Assembly: GCA_009924895.1 (NCBI GenBank)
Contig: RFQR01000007.1
Coordinates: forward strand, 1 to 63,710
Source of the DNA: a bacterium
GTDB lineage: Bacteria > Patescibacteriota > Minisyncoccia > Phycocordibacterales > UBA2100
Direction of reading: 5' to 3'
DNA length: 63,710 nucleotides
Positions 1-24,165 of this stretch are shown in pieces. The notes beneath the pieces are model-generated. The model ran no database searches. It worked only from the letters and a program-made list of their open reading frames with translations, and was not told the origin of the DNA. The position numbers and the translations under genes were made by a program. Within the stretch, counting starts at the first letter, position 1. Each line of letters opens with the position of its first letter.

Positions 1-581
1 GTTATGCCTCTGGGCTCTTACTGTTTTTGCGTCCAGGAGTGATTTGCAGGCGAGGGCTGGGGCTCCACGAGCACGCGGGGATGTCCGAGCGTGGTCAGGC
101 GGAGAAAAGTTTCGACGGAAAATTTTCGAGCGTTTGACCGAGTCCCTCCTGGCGTACAAACGACAGAACAACCTGCACTGCTGCAGGTTGTTTTGCGTTT
201 GGGCGAGCCGGCACCTTGTGAGTACGCAAGTGCACTTGGATTTTTATAGACGGAGTACCGTCTTAAAAATCTCGGCGAAGCCATGTTTTGCTAGCGACCA
301 ATTTTTCTTGCCGGTACTCCGGCTAAGAAAAAGGAAGTACTCTTGTGGTGCAAGCAAAACGGGCGAGGCAGGTAAGGGCACACTTATGCAAAGCTTCGTG
401 AAATTTTATGAGCGACGGCGAGTAAAATATTCCTGACCACCCATAAATGCCTGATAAATTATGCGTGACGGAATCCCTCCTGGCGCAAAATATTTTTATT
501 TCCCTACTTATAAATCATATTTTTTGCTACCCCTATTTGCTGGGTGCGTGAGACTTTTAATGTTGTGTGTAAAAATATCAT

Positions 582-3717: not shown

Positions 3718-5091
3718 ATGAAGGCGCAGGATATTGTCGAAGACTTTTTTAAAGCACCGGCAATTGTCCTCGAAGAAGGCGTCGAGCTGGGTGAAAAAAT
3801 TCAGGACGAGCTGGTGAGTAAACTACCTCTGAAGCAAGCAGAAGAGTATGTAAATACCCTTGGCCCCGGCCTTATAACGGGTGCGGCAGATGATGACCCG
3901 TCTGGAATTGCAACGTATTCTCAAGCGGGCGCACAGTACGGGTTTCAGCTCCTTTGGCTTGCGCTTTTTACCTTTCCCCTTATGGCTGTCGTACAGGAGA
4001 TGTGCGCACGCCTCGCGCTTGTTACGGGGCAGGGACTCGCCGCGAACATTCGCGAGCGTTATCCGCACGGGGTATTGATTCTCTGCACAACGCTTCTCTT
4101 TGCAGTGAACACATTCAACCTGGGTGCTGATCTGGGTGCAATGGCAAAAGCGATGCAGCTCTTGTTTCCGTCGCTTGATTTTACGTTTCTCGTTGTAAGC
4201 TTTGCCCTTGTCTCTCTCATGCTGCAAGTCTTTACGACGTATGCACGCTATGCACGATATCTGAAATACTGCACGTTGGCGTTGCTTTCGTATGTTGCTG
4301 CGGCGTTTGTTGTTCAGATAGATTGGACAGCCGTCGCTCGGTATACACTCGTTCCGTCGATAACCTTTTCGACTAACCAAATACTTTTGATATGCGCAGT
4401 ACTCGGCACCACCATTTCGCCCTATCTTTTTTTCTGGCAAACAGCACAGGAGGTCGAAGAGGAGATACTGCAGGGTAAAAATACGCTTGAGTTGCGACAG
4501 GGCACGAGTGACATTGAGATAAAGCGTATGCGCATCGATGTCTGGAGCGGCATGTTTTTCTCGAACCTTGTCATGTTTTTTATCATTGCAGTGTGTGGCG
4601 CGACACTCTACGTTCATGGCATCACCACAATTACGAGCGCCGATGAGGCGGCCGCTGCGCTGCGCCCGCTTGCTGGAGAGTTTGCATATCTCTTGTTTGC
4701 TCTTGGCATCATCGGCACCGGCATGCTTGCGGTGCCGGTTTTAGCAGGCTCCACATCGTATGCTCTTTCAGAAAGTTTCGCATGGGATATGGGGCTGTAC
4801 CGAAAACTGAACGAAGCATATGCGTTTTATGGCGTCATCATCGTCTCTATGCTTCTTGGTATTGCATTCAATGTGATCGGAATAGATCCAATTAAAGCTC
4901 TGATCTACTCTGCAATCGGCAATGGGCTTATTGCGCCGGTTCTACTCTTTTTTGTGGTGCGCCTCAGTAGCGATGCGTCAATTATGGGGGAGCTCATAAA
5001 TACGCGCCTCATTACACTTCTCGGATGGAGTACCGTTGTGCTTATGGCACTCTCTGGCAGCGCCGCTATCGTGGCGCTGTGTGTATCGTAA
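3718..5091 (+). CDS. NRAMP-family divalent metal transporter
   Basis: GPGLITGAADDDPSGIATYSQAGA and LGTTISPYLFFWQ motifs. Confidence 0.93.
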   Translation: MKAQDIVEDFFKAPAIVLEEGVELGEKIQDELVSKLPLKQAEEYVNTLGPGLITGAADDDPSGIATYSQAGAQYGFQLLWLALFTFPLMAVVQEMCARLALVTGQGLAANIRERYPHGVLILCTTLLFAVNTFNLGADLGAMAKAMQLLFPSLDFTFLVVSFALVSLMLQVFTTYARYARYLKYCTLALLSYVAAAFVVQIDWTAVARYTLVPSITFSTNQILLICAVLGTTISPYLFFWQTAQEVEEEILQGKNTLELRQGTSDIEIKRMRIDVWSGMFFSNLVMFFIIAVCGATLYVHGITTITSADEAAAALRPLAGEFAYLLFALGIIGTGMLAVPVLAGSTSYALSESFAWDMGLYRKLNEAYAFYGVIIVSMLLGIAFNVIGIDPIKALIYSAIGNGLIAPVLLFFVVRLSSDASIMGELINTRLITLLGWSTVVLMALSGSAAIVALCVS

Positions 5092-11947: not shown

Positions 11948-12904
11948 ATGGCACACACAGGCTATATGGGAGATTCAATATTTTGGGTGGAGGTCGAGCG
12001 TATAAAGCCAAACCCGTTTCAGCCGCGTAAGACGTTTGATGAGGTGGCGCTTGCCTCTCTTGCAGAGTCGATTCGCCAATATGGCGTTTTGCAGCCGCTT
12101 ACGGTAACGCGCAAAGAAATCGAGCGACCAGGAGAGGGGATTTTTGTTGAGTATGAACTGGTGGCGGGTGAGCGCAGGCTGCGCGCATCAAAGCTCGCCG
12201 GTATCGCACAAGTACCGGTTGTGATTCGCAGCGCTGAGGATACGGATCGCATGAAACTCGAGCTTGCGATTATCGAAAACTTGCAGCGTGAAGATTTGAA
12301 CGCAGTTGATCGCGCGCTTGCATTTAAGCGCTTGGCAGATGACTTTGGTCTCAAGCATGCTGAAATAGGACAGCGTGTTGGAAAGAGTCGCGAATATGTT
12401 TCAAATACGCTGCGCATTTTACTTTTGCCGCAAGAAATGCTTGACGCGTTGTCGCGGGGGGACATCAGCGATGGTCACACGAGGCCGCTTCTTATGCTGC
12501 AAGACAGGAAAGAAGAGCAGGCGACGCTCTTTCATGACATAGTTGCACGCCGCCTCTCGGTGCGCGACACTGAACAGCTGGCTCGGCGTGTTGCGGTGGA
12601 TAAAGTACGCAATCACGAATCACTTTCGCCCGATGTGATAGCACTCGAGAAGCAGTTGAGTGAAGCACTCGGCACAAAGGTCCGCATCGAAAAGAAAGAA
12701 AAAGGAGGAAAAGTCACCATTGATTTCTTCTCACCGGAAGATTTGGCAAATCTCTGTATGTCGCTTGCAATGAAGCCGGAATCATCGGCTGCGAGTATTC
12801 CTTCTGAGCCCGCGCCGACGAGTAGCGAGCCGCTTCCTGCTGCGCCGGTACAGAAAAAAGAAGACGATCAAAACTTATACTCAGTATCGGGATTCACGGT
12901 CTAG
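11948..12904 (+). CDS. parB: ParB/Spo0J partition protein
   Basis: NPFQPRK, GVLQP, LVAGERRLRA, IENLQREDLN. Confidence 0.95.
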   Translation: MAHTGYMGDSIFWVEVERIKPNPFQPRKTFDEVALASLAESIRQYGVLQPLTVTRKEIERPGEGIFVEYELVAGERRLRASKLAGIAQVPVVIRSAEDTDRMKLELAIIENLQREDLNAVDRALAFKRLADDFGLKHAEIGQRVGKSREYVSNTLRILLLPQEMLDALSRGDISDGHTRPLLMLQDRKEEQATLFHDIVARRLSVRDTEQLARRVAVDKVRNHESLSPDVIALEKQLSEALGTKVRIEKKEKGGKVTIDFFSPEDLANLCMSLAMKPESSAASIPSEPAPTSSEPLPAAPVQKKEDDQNLYSVSGFTV

Positions 12905-14421
12905 GCTTTCTTTTGCGCGCTGGTGAGTGCTGATTTAATCTGTTTTTTTGCGAGCGACGTCTTTGCGATGGACAGCCACTTCTGGGAGGGTTTTCCTTTT
13001 GGTTTTGTGATTATTTCAACTAAATCGCCGTTGTGAAGTGGGGTATCGAGGGAGACCATTTTTCCATTCACTCGTGCACCCGACATTACATCGCCAATGT
13101 CAGAGTGAATCGCATAAGCGAAATCAATCGGGGTCGCGTGAATAGGCATGTCGATGACATCTCCTTTCGGGGTAAAGATAAAAATACGATGAGAAAAAAA
13201 GTCTGATTTAAGCGTGTCGAGGTACTCTTCTGACTGGGCAGTTCCAACGCCATCGGCGAGTTCTTGTACCCATTTCAGCGTGGGGGTGTCCCCGGCAAGC
13301 GCTGGCGTACTGCTCGCCCGCGTAAGTTTGGGAAGAAATTGTGTTACCCAACCAAGGCCACTACGCTCCTGATTTTCTTGGACTTCTTTGTAGGTGAGAT
13401 GCGATGCGATGCCGTACTGCGCTTCGCGGTGCTGGGCTTCGGTGCGTAGTTGTATCTCAAGAGCCCCACCGTCGCCGGTATACACCGTAGTATGAATAGA
13501 TTGATAGCCGTTTGGCTTCGGGAAGGCAATATAATCTTTAATTTTTCCTGGCACCGGTCGCCAGTGTCCGTGGATAACGCCGAGCGCACTATAACAGTCT
13601 GCCACCGTAGGGAATATAATGCGAAGAGCCCGTATATCGTAAATACTAGTAATATCCCACTTTTTCCGTTCAAGTTTTCGGAACAGTGAATAGATACCTT
13701 TGACGCGCGCCTCCGTACGAAAAGTTCGGATTCCAGCGTCGGCAAGTTCACGCTTCAAATCATGCTCTGTTTTTTCGAGTCGTTTTTCATTTTCGCGCGT
13801 CTTTTCTTTTAGAAGCTCCCGGGTTTTTTCATATTCTTTTTGGAATGCATAGGGAAATGCTGCGTCCTCGAGTTCATTTTTTAAGACACTCATACCAAGT
13901 CGATCAGCAATTGGTGCATATATTTCAAGTGTCTCAAGAGCGATACGTTTTCGTTTGTCAGGGCGGGGAACGTGATTGAGGGTGCGCACATTGTGGAGAC
14001 GGTCCATCAATTTGACGATAAGTACTCGGATATCTTGCGCGGTTGCAGCAAAGAGCTTGCGGAGTGATTCCGTGTGACGTTCGACTCCCTGATACCGCAA
14101 AGCACCGAGTTTAGTAACTCCCTGTACAATCGTGAGTACGTCAGATCCAAATTTTTCTTCAATTGTTTTTGCGGGCAATCCTGCGTCTTCGACCGTGTCG
14201 TGAAGGAGTCCGGCGGCAACGGTTATTGCATCAAGCCCATATGAGGCGAGAAGGTATCCGACTTCGGCGGGGTGAATGAAATACGGATCCCCTGAAAAGC
14301 GCTTTTGCTCTTTATGTGCCTCTTTTGATAATTCGTATGCGGCGCTCACGAGTGCGATATCGGGCTCAGTTTTACTGCTGAGCGCACCTATGATGTCTTT
14401 GAGGGGGCGTGCTTGAGCCAT
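12901..14421 (-). CDS. relA: RelA/SpoT homolog (HD + synthetase + TGS, no ACT domain)
   Basis: HDTVED, DRLHN, KPNGYQSIHT, EIQLRT, TPIDFAYAIHS; start likely ATG 14421. Confidence 0.92.
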   Translation of the reverse strand: MAQARPLKDIIGALSSKTEPDIALVSAAYELSKEAHKEQKRFSGDPYFIHPAEVGYLLASYGLDAITVAAGLLHDTVEDAGLPAKTIEEKFGSDVLTIVQGVTKLGALRYQGVERHTESLRKLFAATAQDIRVLIVKLMDRLHNVRTLNHVPRPDKRKRIALETLEIYAPIADRLGMSVLKNELEDAAFPYAFQKEYEKTRELLKEKTRENEKRLEKTEHDLKRELADAGIRTFRTEARVKGIYSLFRKLERKKWDITSIYDIRALRIIFPTVADCYSALGVIHGHWRPVPGKIKDYIAFPKPNGYQSIHTTVYTGDGGALEIQLRTEAQHREAQYGIASHLTYKEVQENQERSGLGWVTQFLPKLTRASSTPALAGDTPTLKWVQELADGVGTAQSEEYLDTLKSDFFSHRIFIFTPKGDVIDMPIHATPIDFAYAIHSDIGDVMSGARVNGKMVSLDTPLHNGDLVEIITKPKGKPSQKWLSIAKTSLAKKQIKSALTSAQKKA

Positions 14422-14447
14422 ACGGGCATCATACCGCTCTCTTCTCA

Positions 14448-14520
14448 CTACTTCAATTTGTGGGGATTGTGGTTTGCACAGGTCTTATTACTACACCTTT
14501 CGGGTATCGTTTTGTGTCCC
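14448..14520 (-). pseudogene. Relic second copy of the topA 3' end (KTIPERCSNKTCANHNPHKLK*)
   Basis: 17 of 19 aa identical to the topA C-terminus encoded at 14582-14638. Confidence 0.85.
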
Positions 14521-14562
14521 AGCCCCAGCAAAAAGCGAGTACGCTTAGTGCTGGGTAGCTGG
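14519..14562. repeat. 44-nt imperfect hairpin between topA and its relic 3' end
   Basis: ccagc-cccagca-aa-aagcg-agta-cgctt-ag-tgctggg-ta-gctgg. Confidence 0.75.
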
Positions 14563-14563
14563 A

Positions 14564-16729
14564 CTACTTTTTTGAATCAATTTTGTGCGGATTGTGGTTC
14601 GGACATGTTTTACTTGAGCAACGCTCAGGGATGGTCTTAGTCCCATGCATCATAAGAGAGCCGCACATCTTACAGAGTGCGCCAGTAGGGCGTGCCTTGA
14701 TAGCATTTTTGCAGTCGGGATAATTTGAACACGAGAAGAAAGGTCCGAAACGACCGCGGCGCTCCACCATTTCGCCCGTTTTGCACACAGGACATATCAC
14801 ACCCGTTTTTGAACGTGCCTCTTCTTCAGCATTTTTCTTTACGAACTTACATTTTGGATATTTTGAGCAGGCAATGAATCTGCCAAACCTCCCTTCGCGC
14901 TCAATGAGGTTACTGCCGCAGACAGGACATTTTTCATCCAATTCTTTTGGAGGCTCGATGACAGAGCCATCCTCTTTGCGCGCACCTTTACACTCAGGAA
15001 ACTTTTTACACGACATAAAGCGGCCGCTACGCGACAATTTATACTCCATTTCGCCACCACAGGTGGGGCATGTGAACTCGGGGGGTACATCGCCCATACC
15101 GGTAATTTTGGGAATTTTGTCTTTTGCTTTTACCGCTTTATGGAACGCACCATAAAAGTCGCGCAGTGTTTTTGCATATTCGCGCGTGCCCTCGGCGATT
15201 TCATCGAGCTCGTTTTCCATTTCGGCAGTAAAGGTGTCAGAGATATAGTCATTAAAGTGACTTTCGATAAAGGTGGAAACGACATCGCCAGTGTGAGTCG
15301 GTAAGAGCGTGCGACCCTGTTTTTCGACGTAGCCTCGCTCCTCAAGTGTCGAAATAATTGATGCGTAGGTAGAAGGGCGTCCGATACCTCGTTTTTCAAG
15401 TTCTTTAATAAGTCCTGCCTCGCTGTATCTCCCCGGCGGCTGCGTTTCTTTCCCTTCTGATTGGATATCGTGAAGCGTGAGTCTTTCGCCCTGTGTAACT
15501 GCGGGAAGTTGCACATCTTCGCCTCGAGCATCGGGATCGGCCTTGAGCCATCCGTCAAAGACGACACGCGAACCATTTGCGGTAAAATCAGGGATACCTT
15601 TATCTGAGTGCGCGATAATTTTAGTACGCATGACGCGGGCATCAGTCATTTGAGAAGCAAGTGAGCGCGCGAGAATAAGCGCATAGACCTGTTTCTGGTC
15701 GTCATTCGCTCCTGCCGAACGCTTTCCTGGATTTGTGGGGCGAATAGCCTCGTGTGCTTCTTGGGCGTTTTTTGACTTGGTTTTAAAGACACGTGCTTCA
15801 GTATATTTTTCACCAAACTCTTTCTGTACGGTTGCGAGAAGCGCTGTCTGAGCGTCTTTTCCGAGGTTGGTCGAGTCGGTACGCATATAGGTAATACAGC
15901 CTGCCTCGTACAGTTTTTGTGCCGCTCGCATCGTACGAGAGGGAGAGAACCCAAGTCGTGTTGAAGCTGCCTGTTGTAGTGTGGATGTGGTAAAGGGTGC
16001 CCGCGGTGAGCGAGCCTGCTCACTTTCGTCGACTGAGAGAACGGTCCAATTACTGTCTTGTGCGGTCGTGACTATGCGGTTCGCCTCTTCTTCGGTCTTT
16101 GGTTCTTCCACGCAAGTAGTTGGGAAGTGTTGTTTGTTAGTACCAGAAAACTGTGCGGTGATGACCCAGAACTTCTCCGGAACAAATGCGCGGATTTCGC
16201 GCTCCTTTTCCATGATGATGCGTAGTGCCGGCGATTGTACACGGCCAGCAGAAAGTCCGTAGCGCACTTTTTTCCAAATAAGTCCTGAAAGATCGTACCC
16301 GAAAAGACGGTCAAGGACACGTCGCGCTTCTTGCGCTTGGCGCAGACTCTGGTCGATTGCACGGGGTTTTGCAATCGCTTCTTTCACTGCAGTTTCAGTA
16401 ATTTCGTTAAAGGTCGCACGCTTTGGCTTTTTTAGTTTGAGTGTTTCAGCAAGATGCCATGCAATCGCTTCGCCTTCACGATCAGGGTCGGTTGCAAGAA
16501 TAATTTCATCCGCTTTATCAGCCTCACTATGGAGATCGTCAATGATGTGCTGCTTGCCTGCGACTATTTGGTAGCGTGGACGAAAATCATCTTCAATATC
16601 AACGGCATCTTTGTTACTTTTGGGTAAATCACGAATGTGCCCGACTGATGCGCGGACAGTGTAGCCTTTACCAAGATACTTCTCGATGGTTTTGGCTTTT
16701 GATGGCGATTCAACGATGACGAGTTTCAT
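14564..16729 (-). CDS. topA: DNA topoisomerase I (type IA) with C-terminal zinc ribbons
   Basis: MKLVIVESPSKAKTI, ATDPDREGE, ITYMRTD; start reassigned to 16729. Confidence 0.97.
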   Translation of the reverse strand: MKLVIVESPSKAKTIEKYLGKGYTVRASVGHIRDLPKSNKDAVDIEDDFRPRYQIVAGKQHIIDDLHSEADKADEIILATDPDREGEAIAWHLAETLKLKKPKRATFNEITETAVKEAIAKPRAIDQSLRQAQEARRVLDRLFGYDLSGLIWKKVRYGLSAGRVQSPALRIIMEKEREIRAFVPEKFWVITAQFSGTNKQHFPTTCVEEPKTEEEANRIVTTAQDSNWTVLSVDESEQARSPRAPFTTSTLQQAASTRLGFSPSRTMRAAQKLYEAGCITYMRTDSTNLGKDAQTALLATVQKEFGEKYTEARVFKTKSKNAQEAHEAIRPTNPGKRSAGANDDQKQVYALILARSLASQMTDARVMRTKIIAHSDKGIPDFTANGSRVVFDGWLKADPDARGEDVQLPAVTQGERLTLHDIQSEGKETQPPGRYSEAGLIKELEKRGIGRPSTYASIISTLEERGYVEKQGRTLLPTHTGDVVSTFIESHFNDYISDTFTAEMENELDEIAEGTREYAKTLRDFYGAFHKAVKAKDKIPKITGMGDVPPEFTCPTCGGEMEYKLSRSGRFMSCKKFPECKGARKEDGSVIEPPKELDEKCPVCGSNLIEREGRFGRFIACSKYPKCKFVKKNAEEEARSKTGVICPVCKTGEMVERRGRFGPFFSCSNYPDCKNAIKARPTGALCKMCGSLMMHGTKTIPERCSSKTCPNHNPHKIDSKK

Positions 16730-16778
16730 ACAACTATATGTGATTAGAATGTCATACTTTTGTGAGATTGCAAAAATG

Positions 16779-23806: not shown

Positions 23807-23877
23807 TGCCGGATCGTCTAATGGTAGGACATCGCCCTTTGGAGGCGAGTATCTTGGTTCGAATCCAAGTCCGGCAA
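23807..23877 (+). tRNA. tRNA-Gln (TTG)
   Basis: Acceptor TGCCGGA/TCCGGCA, anticodon loop CTTTGGA. Confidence 0.95.
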
Positions 23878-24050
23878 CACGAGGAGTGTAACGACGAGAG
23901 TCACCGAAAGAAATGTGTTGAACACATTTCGTCTTGGATTCGAAGCCCGGAGCGATGTTGCGCGAGTACGCGCAACCGCGAGGGCAGGTCCGAGCAAATT
24001 TTTGCCTGACGAGGCAAAAATTATGCAGGGCTAATCCAAGTCCGGCAACA
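23862..24050. mobile_element. Small non-coding insert bounded by an exact 18-bp repeat of the tRNA-Gln 3' end
   Basis: aatccaagtccggcaaca at 23862-23879 and 24033-24050; three internal hairpins; inverted T-arm copy at 23933-23944. Confidence 0.7.
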
Positions 24051-24165
24051 AGCGAGAGAAGGCGAGCTGCAGCGACTGAACGCGAGTGAAGAAGTGCCAA
24101 AGCACAGCAGTGCGTGGTATGCCTTTGCCAGCAGGCGGCGGGTACAAGCGAGCGAAGGCGAGCTG
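24048..24165. repeat. Second module bounded by a 22-bp direct repeat (1 mismatch)
   Basis: acaagcgagagaaggcgagctg at 24048-24069 vs acaagcgagcgaaggcgagctg at 24144-24165. Confidence 0.7.

Follow-up and report, generated by a model that had tools for sequence, protein, structure and literature searches.

Integrative elements that target transfer RNA (tRNA) genes have gene-less derivatives, the cis-mobilizable elements (CIMEs), which are attL–attR remnants mobilised in trans. IS110/IS1111 elements, with their bridge or seek RNAs, and IS200/IS605 elements, with the guide pairing of their ends, depend on a recombinase that they encode and make no long target duplication. Protein genes are targets as well. 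In Escherichia coli, e14 and phage 21 are both integrated at the 3′ end of icd (PMC6379469; Hill et al. 1989, cited therein). Prophage e14 provides the 3′ codons of the gene, and a pseudo-icd′ of 163 bp is left behind (PMC6379469). Here, we analyse the 3′ end of topA, the gene of DNA topoisomerase I, in 63,710 nt of DNA from a member of the Patescibacteriota (UBA2100; contig RFQR01000007.1 of assembly GCA_009924895.1, positions 1–63,710). For convenience, this whole stretch is called the window. The topA end is present twice in the window, in a duplicated feature of 191 bp, and this feature is probably the scar of a tiny gene-less integrative insertion that brought a replacement topA end.

Anatomy of the duplicated topA end

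The feature and the two genes that border on it are arranged as follows, all on the minus strand.

14564–16732, minus strand: topA (DNA topoisomerase I), 722 aa, ending in copy X1; Pfam Toprim, Topoisom_bac, and three Zn_ribbon_Top1
14564–14638, minus strand: copy X1, the last 24 codons in use and a TAG stop, KTIPERCSSKTCPNHNPHKIDSKK
14516–14564, minus strand: hairpin spacer of 49 nt between copies X1 and X2, predicted fold
14448–14513, minus strand: copy X2, 21 codons and TAG, KTIPERCSNKTCANHNPHKLK, in the −1 frame relative to topA
12901–14421, minus strand: relA/spoT-type (RSH) gene; Pfam HD_4, RelA_SpoT, and TGS

The C-terminus of the topA protein reads GTKTIPERCSSKTCPNHNPHKIDSKK up to the stop codon. 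The relA/spoT gene likely starts at the ATG at 14421, as placed by alignment with the relative L081, and its frame is open from a GTG at 14448. The distance between the stop of copy X2 and this ATG is 26 nt. The two copies lie 125 nt apart, start to start, and contain a direct repeat of 57 nt with 70% identity. Over 20 codons, they differ at 19 nt, which amount to 11 synonymous codons and 3 non-synonymous ones (S/N, P/A, and I/L), and 17 of the 19 shared residues are identical. An earlier note, made from the sequence alone, had reported such a duplicate with 17/19 identical residues, 11 synonymous codons, and a spacing of 125 bp, and its codon count is reproduced exactly. The hairpin that it placed at 14519–14562 (44 nt) is present as well, but with the larger extent given above.

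The site is empty in the closest relatives

The closest relatives by protein search (fetched as L081, L082, and L083) share 83–84% identity with the window over the C-terminal 303 residues of TopA. L081 TopA is 79% identical over the whole protein and is the sister of the window in the topA tree (SH-aLRT 99). The gene order serS, dprA, topA, relA/spoT, parB is common to the window and all three relatives. In each of them, the site is empty: the topA stop is followed by 24–31 nt and then by relA/spoT. In the alignment, copy X2 together with its stop and the next 26 nt matches the working topA end and spacer of L081, and the hairpin follows copy X1 instead.

The three residues that differ between the copies are in accordance with this alignment. 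Copy X2 carries the residues of L081 (N, A, and L), whereas copy X1 (S, P, and I) matches none of them. Among 141 distinct working ends, A is found in 11, S in 12, and I in 9, and the chance that a random working end agrees with L081 at all three is ~4%. The DSKK tail of copy X1 also differs from L081. Judging from the sequences, copy X2 is the displaced, vertically inherited native end, because it aligns with the empty-site arrangement and carries the N, A, and L of the sister. By the same token, copy X1, at least its 3′ part and the DSKK tail, is probably the newcomer, an imported replacement end.

The topA–relA/spoT spacer is variable even without a duplicate. In the close relatives L204–L207, it is 275–382 nt long and contains terminator hairpins and small open reading frames (ORFs) called on the opposite strand, with no second topA end. 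Likewise, no second topA end is found in the long topA–relA spacers of the relatives P0005–P0009.

The topA 3′ end is occupied recurrently

A one-genome-per-species scan yields 80 topA loci, all from Patescibacteria (Paceibacteria, Kaiserbacteria-like), with 62–78% identity. The topA site is filled in 12 of these 80 related species, ten of which have the arrangement X1–insert–X2; the other two are L032, which has an insert behind topA without X2, and L069. In the ten species, the second copy lies ~200 nt downstream of the first and begins at the same codon, and L075 has a third copy. In the topA tree, the filled sites occupy at least 8 distinct positions, beside empty closest relatives. In filled/empty alignments of close species (L021 versus L016/L017/L056; L032 versus L028), divergence is too high in the downstream regions.

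In a metagenome scan, the right-hand junction (GTGACC and then a K codon) is found in at least 120 stretches. In all, there are at least 66 non-redundant X1–X2 pairs, about 55 of them on further metagenome contigs, with the copies 174–305 nt apart. The pair statistics given below (61, 65, or 66 pairs) cover the 80-species set and the matches listed in the metagenome scan. The duplicate begins at the K codon of KTIPERC in all 65 pairs compared, including that of the window. The window repeat reaches 5 nt further upstream (GGGAC), as do those of L157, L123, and L197.

The earlier note had suggested a search for cargo or an integrase between two topA ends. Cargo is indeed found in L069 (Sungiibacteriota), where 1 kb on the opposite strand (3782–4690) separates two topA ends, but an integrase is found in none of 65 loci. 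The L069 cargo consists of a SocA/Panacea antitoxin-like gene (PF13274, E 3.7e-23) and, next to it, an ORF of 122 aa without Pfam match. It looks like a toxin–antitoxin pair, and a recombinase is absent from it.

The paired copies differ like two working alleles

The topA C-terminal motif GTKTIPERCSNKxCPNHNPHKL is near-invariant in the 80 relatives, so any two lineages use different codons for an almost identical peptide. Between lineages, the background is 17.7 ± 3.2 differences per 60 nt, with 9.9 synonymous and 3.2 non-synonymous codons. In 61 intact pairs, the two copies within a genome differ at 557 codons synonymously and at 106 non-synonymously. The within-genome ratio of non-synonymous to synonymous differences is 0.06–0.10 for pairs with 7–16 differences and 0.30 for pairs with 17–21 differences. 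Between working ends of different genomes at equal distance, the ratio is 0.25–0.32.

Neutral decay of one copy would give a ratio of ~1.5, according to our own rough estimate. As the within-genome ratio is far below this value and does not exceed the between-genome ratio, we reject a fresh duplicate of which one copy decays neutrally. By this measure, the paired copies look like two working alleles. The same had been proposed for the window as ‘two long-separated alleles’, and the proposal is borne out across the family.

Copy X2 is nevertheless the idle copy of the pair, as far as its sequence tells. It is frameshifted in three pairs (L121, L129, and L140) and damaged at conserved positions in L155. 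In addition, a residue never seen in working ends is found 15 times in X2 and 3 times in X1. The decay since insertion is slight, indicating that the inserts are young or frequently renewed. The distances of X1 and of X2 show no correlation with those of the core or of upstream topA (rho ~0, saturated).

A canonical insert with a conserved fold

In many Paceibacteria, the usual occupant of the topA site is a conserved, gene-less, folded insert of ~130 nt. RNAalifold predicts four helices from the aligned spacers, which are P1, hairpin A, stem B, and stem C. P1 pairs the start of X1 with a short arm of the spacer, hairpin A is located just past the stop, and stem C ends at the base before X2. 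Stems B and C make up the folded core. Compensatory changes are found in 33 of the 50 predicted pairs. A conserved G.U pair in the insert makes the predicted fold specific for the sense strand.

A covariance model built from 13 insert copies (R1) scores 122–160 bits at the topA sites of 10 relatives. R1 also finds the module behind tRNA-Leu, tRNA-Tyr, tRNA-Trp, and tRNA-Gln genes. At these sites, the insert is followed by a 12–22-nt repeat of the tRNA 3′ end, and its arm is antisense to the T-arm or to the 3′ strand of the acceptor stem. A search against Rfam (gathering score or E ≤ 10) matches only tRNAs in 10 filled loci and nothing credible on the units of L021 and L035.

The P1 arm follows the silent variation of GGN-ACN-AAR-ACN, which has four synonymous wobble positions. 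In P1, 97% of the cells are paired, compared with 82% in shuffles and 41–52% with a slid partner. Double changes number 96, compared with 30.5 ± 4 in shuffles, and none of 500 shuffles reaches 96. Of the four variable positions, two precede the duplicated segment. At differences between X1 and X2, the arm agrees with X1 over X2 by 29:1 and 30:5.

In L027 and L031, half of the insert is 100% identical although topA is only ~78% identical, indicating at the sequence level that the insert moves or recombines between lineages. Two loci deviate from the canonical form. In L032 (8161–8300), the module lacks the end of stem C and X2 and has a terminator-like hairpin at its end; in L012 (8260–8340), a partial second module is nested within the insert. 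Both look like states of decay or rearrangement of the insert family.

Three other readings were considered and rejected. A diversity-generating retroelement does not fit, as the copies differ at more than adenines and a reverse transcriptase is absent. A group I intron would have a splice-site U.G pair, which is missing here. The known self-cleaving ribozymes are rejected as well, as the core is just two hairpins and no Rfam model matches.

The window has a hairpin-type spacer

The spacer in the window (14516–14564) is predicted to fold at about −29 to −30 kcal/mol. The 141-nt region around it has a z-score of −2.9, and 0 of 200 shuffles are as good. The hairpin begins at the G of the topA stop codon. 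Unlike the P1 arm of canonical inserts, its left end, GTCCAGC, has its pairing partner, GCTGGGAC, on the side of X2. The 3′ arm of the hairpin contains GGGAC, a copy of the Gly-Thr codons preceding X1. The hairpin is followed by no T-run, so it is not terminator-like.

The same hairpin design is found at the topA site in L157, L123/L147, and L197, in arrays alongside canonical inserts. Spacers of this hairpin type start after the stop with GTCC(C/A)GC, and the whole spacer is predicted to form one hairpin (−13 to −49 kcal/mol). They end in GG(G/C)AC(N), so X2 repeats the Gly-Thr codons too. The window spacer would be a minimal variant of this type, and its kinship with the canonical family is plausible.

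We also considered the window spacer as an internally deleted canonical module and rejected this idea. R1 scores just 8.5 bits, X2 includes GGGAC rather than following GTGACC, and four other loci share the hairpin design.

Arrays of three or four topA ends split by inserts are seen in L123/L147, L157, L197, L100, L101, L111, L149, and L075, and in some of them both canonical and hairpin-type spacers occur. An open +1 frame in L123 crosses a 151-nt AT-rich hairpin spacer into the next copy.

Proposed insertion at the topA end

We propose that a very small element inserted in front of the native end by a Campbell-type (single-crossover) event, with the recombination enzyme supplied in trans. The insert would be ~125 bp long and consist of the replacement last 24 codons with their stop (X1) and the 49-nt hairpin, placed ahead of the ancestral 21 codons (X2). 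TopA is essential and highly conserved. As the element would carry its own copy of the target gene end, topA would stay intact. The copies would differ mainly synonymously because they come from two working topA alleles, that of the element or donor lineage and that of the host. Copy X2 would no longer be part of topA and would simply stay at the former gene end upstream of relA/spoT. The present effect of the insertion is probably just a longer, structured topA–relA/spoT spacer.

The earlier note had offered two readings, a scar of an element that used the topA 3′ end as its attachment site and displaced the native end, and an allele replacement. The empty sites, the native X2, and the recurrent target all favour the first. 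Recombination at the site is seen in L089/L128, in agreement with the second, but for the window we rank allele replacement below insertion.

Observations that weigh against the proposed insertion

Several observations weigh against the proposed insertion. First, nucleotide distance does not settle which copy is native. The nearest relatives differ from X1 and X2 alike at 11–12 of 60 positions, as synonymous sites are saturated and the distances are uninformative, and a codon-by-codon comparison of the window copies with L081 gives a mosaic. The comparison with the topA of relatives called for by the earlier note identifies the native copy by residues and spacer, but not by nucleotide distance. 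At other loci, the tails point to X1 as native (L075 and L022) or to X2 (L027, L030, and L031).

Second, the canonical module is absent from the window topA spacer, where 82 core positions of R1 are deleted. The link of this spacer to those of L157, L123/L147, and L197 consists of the design and short end motifs only. The earlier note had pointed to a search for the hairpin elsewhere; blastn finds no other copy of its sequence in the window or in ~200 loci.

Third, no integrase or other recombinase is found in the insert or beside it, either in the window (spacer of 49–51 nt) or in the 65 filled loci listed, and no gene of any kind separates the copies there. Furthermore, no excised or empty form of the site of this species is seen in contigs of four metagenomes.

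Fourth, the copies are identical over 60 nt, with lineage-specific letters, in 5 of 66 pairs, indicating that some duplications were made or homogenised locally. Moreover, part of the X1–X2 divergence may stem from later allele replacement. Such replacement is suggested by a recombination breakpoint at the insert in L089 and L128. In L089 and L128/L159, which come from different samples, the stretch from the insert through X2 to relA/spoT is 100% identical, whereas topA up to the X1 stop is ~20% different. The conserved insert seems to act here as a homology patch for recombination between lineages.

Alternative explanations

The fourth group of observations suits an alternative in which a local hairpin-associated tandem duplication (X1 = X2) came first, and homologous recombination with a related lineage then overwrote either the copy on the gene side or the whole 3′ part of topA. 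Besides the identical pairs, the differences between copies run continuously from 0 to ~23 across the pairs, and rare residues specific to a lineage are often common to the copies of one genome (V in L075, MCK in L089/L128, and Q in L035). The L089 versus L128/L159 breakpoint is found on two separate contigs. Patescibacteria of this kind are thought to take up DNA, and dprA is located directly upstream of topA in the window. However, a local duplication explains neither the arrival of a conserved folded module at one and the same codon in at least 8 lineages nor the presence of this module at tRNA ends with matching repeats. It also needs two events where one suffices, and the window shows no direct sign of a recombination breakpoint in upstream topA. 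We therefore consider this alternative unlikely.

A second alternative is a programmed −1 ribosomal frameshift, stimulated by the hairpin, at a slippery heptamer in front of the topA stop.

14567–14573, minus strand: slippery heptamer A_AAA_AAG, dnaX-type, in frame (AAA and AAG are zero-frame codons), immediately before the topA stop

Ribosomes would then read the −1 frame VVQLPSTKRTRFLLGLGH into X2, TopA would gain a second tail of 39 aa, and translation of X2 would account for its conservation. An X_XXY_YYZ heptamer at the stop is found in just 8 of 138 topA ends, and A_AAA_AAG in 2. A strong hairpin follows the heptamer, copy X2 is in the −1 frame, and nothing interrupts this frame between the topA stop and X2, a situation found in just 2 of 65 pairs. 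On the other hand, 63 of 65 analogous pairs have a stop that closes the frame of X2, and X2 occupies the three frames about equally (17, 28, and 20). The pairs with a closed frame show the same synonymous-only divergence, indicating that translation is not needed to explain it. By our own estimate, ~0.5 cases of such a combination are expected by chance among ~65–70 pairs. The geometry is also unusual. A stimulatory structure is usually located 5–9 nt downstream of the heptamer (dnaX, IS911), whereas the hairpin here starts 2 nt past the heptamer and its upper stem 11 nt past it. Of the last zinc ribbon, copy X2 contains just the second half, with CxxxxC but no CxxC knuckle, which makes a useful fold doubtful, and no relative with the same arrangement is found. 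Taken together, a frameshift is improbable. One added A in the A6 run (14567–14573) would fuse topA to X2 in a single frame.

Presence in independent metagenomes

We compared the region with Logan contigs of metagenome runs from four lake or freshwater studies (2015–2024). The runs are labelled run X1 to run X4, and these labels are unrelated to the gene-end copies. A 501-nt stretch over the feature is complete in three runs from three studies and largely present in the fourth. Aligned to 13900–15200, the contigs of the four runs show 0 differences, indels, or joints at 14393–14715, and the whole region is spanned by one contig each in run X1, run X2, and run X3. As the comparison used assembled contigs, rare variants could drop out. 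A further run, run X5, gives low-depth fragments only. This organism is found in no metatranscriptome (shares ≤0.12, reflecting tRNA only).

The X1–hairpin–X2 arrangement is therefore real and fixed. The earlier note had raised a chimeric assembly of two strains as a threat to its reading. The window does come from a metagenome-assembled genome, and repeats of this kind can mislead assemblers, but a false joint of two strains at the conserved end of topA is excluded because four independent studies give the identical sequence over both copies and the hairpin.

Related inserts elsewhere in the window

R1 finds the canonical module at two other places in the window.

23880–24050, plus strand: canonical insert behind tRNA-Gln(UUG) (tRNA at 23807–23878), R1 90.7 bits, E 2.8e-20
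274–439, plus strand: partial copy of the module at the window start, R1 41.3 bits, E 1.3e-7

The tRNA-Gln insert contains a mirror arm, CTTGGATTCGAA, at 23933–23944, which is antisense to the T-arm of the tRNA. An 18-nt direct repeat of the tRNA end is located at 23862–23879 and 24033–24050. The insert is fixed in run X1, run X2, and run X3.

Directly after it, on the plus strand, lies a 96-bp unit (24058–24153) bounded by a direct repeat of ~21 nt (ACAAGCGAG.GAAGGCGAGCTG). The unit is absent from the strain in run X3, where 24057 is joined to 24154. The population is still polymorphic for this second small insert.

At the window start (1–485, plus strand), there are two tandem structured units, each followed by TCCCTCCTGGCG, with a 12-nt direct repeat at ~146–157 and 473–484. 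The window edge probably truncates a tRNA gene, of which TCCCTCCTGGCG would be the repeated 3′ end.

The inserts at the ends of topA and of tRNA genes may belong to one class of protein-less, self-addressed mobile elements, a suggestion that we make tentatively. Such an element would have a folded core of ~100–130 nt, as RNA or single-stranded DNA, and a retargetable arm. The arm would pair across the gene-side junction, and the element would also carry a spare gene end. A host enzyme or a trans-acting enzyme would insert it into conserved gene ends without harm. The hairpin-type spacer of the window would then be a minimal or decayed relative.

Comparison with known systems

The last codons of an essential gene appear to have been swapped repeatedly, in at least 15% of related species, by gene-less inserts of 50–200 bp. 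The coding target permits a synonymous versus non-synonymous test that is impossible with tRNA targets. The coding-based tests and the hairpin-type variant are what this analysis adds. In full-text literature and Rfam, we find no description of gene-less 50–200 bp inserts that replace the end of an essential gene, and none of a conserved folded core or a junction-tracking arm of such inserts. Annotation should treat duplicated gene ends of this kind as insertion scars rather than as small genes or misassemblies.

Among known frameshift sites, those of dnaX type share with the window the in-frame heptamer, a strong downstream hairpin, and an open −1 frame. Unlike them, the window has a spacing of 2 nt, no conserved relatives, an extension of half a zinc ribbon, and a frequency of about chance among ~65 pairs.

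The inserts resemble IS110/IS1111 and IS200/IS605 in that a short segment of the element is complementary to the insertion site and varies with the target. Unlike those elements, they have no recombinase gene and make a long target duplication.

The resemblance to tRNA-targeting elements and CIMEs lies in the direct repeat, which extends from an internal point of the gene (the T-loop in tRNAs) to its 3′ end, and in the patchy presence, the arrays by tandem accretion, and the gene-less derivatives. Unlike att sites and CIMEs, the Patescibacteria inserts share a folded core with strong covariation and an arm that is complementary to the gene-side junction and tracks its synonymous variation. To our knowledge, neither a conserved folded core nor a junction-complementary arm has been described for att sites or CIMEs. 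The tracking of silent gene-side variation by the P1 arm is a constraint that any mechanism must explain.

As in the case of e14 and phage 21 in icd, the insertion lies within the 3′ end of a protein gene and the incoming DNA completes the gene. In both cases, the displaced native end persists as a pseudo-end on the far side, and the two ends differ mostly conservatively or synonymously. e14 and phage 21 are kilobases long and use a tyrosine integrase, whereas the insert here is ~125 bp (~200 bp in the canonical case) and gene-less, with no integrase in the 65 filled sites listed. The supply of a replacement gene end by an integrating element is therefore a known principle, and what appears to be new is its use by small, gene-less, folded inserts.

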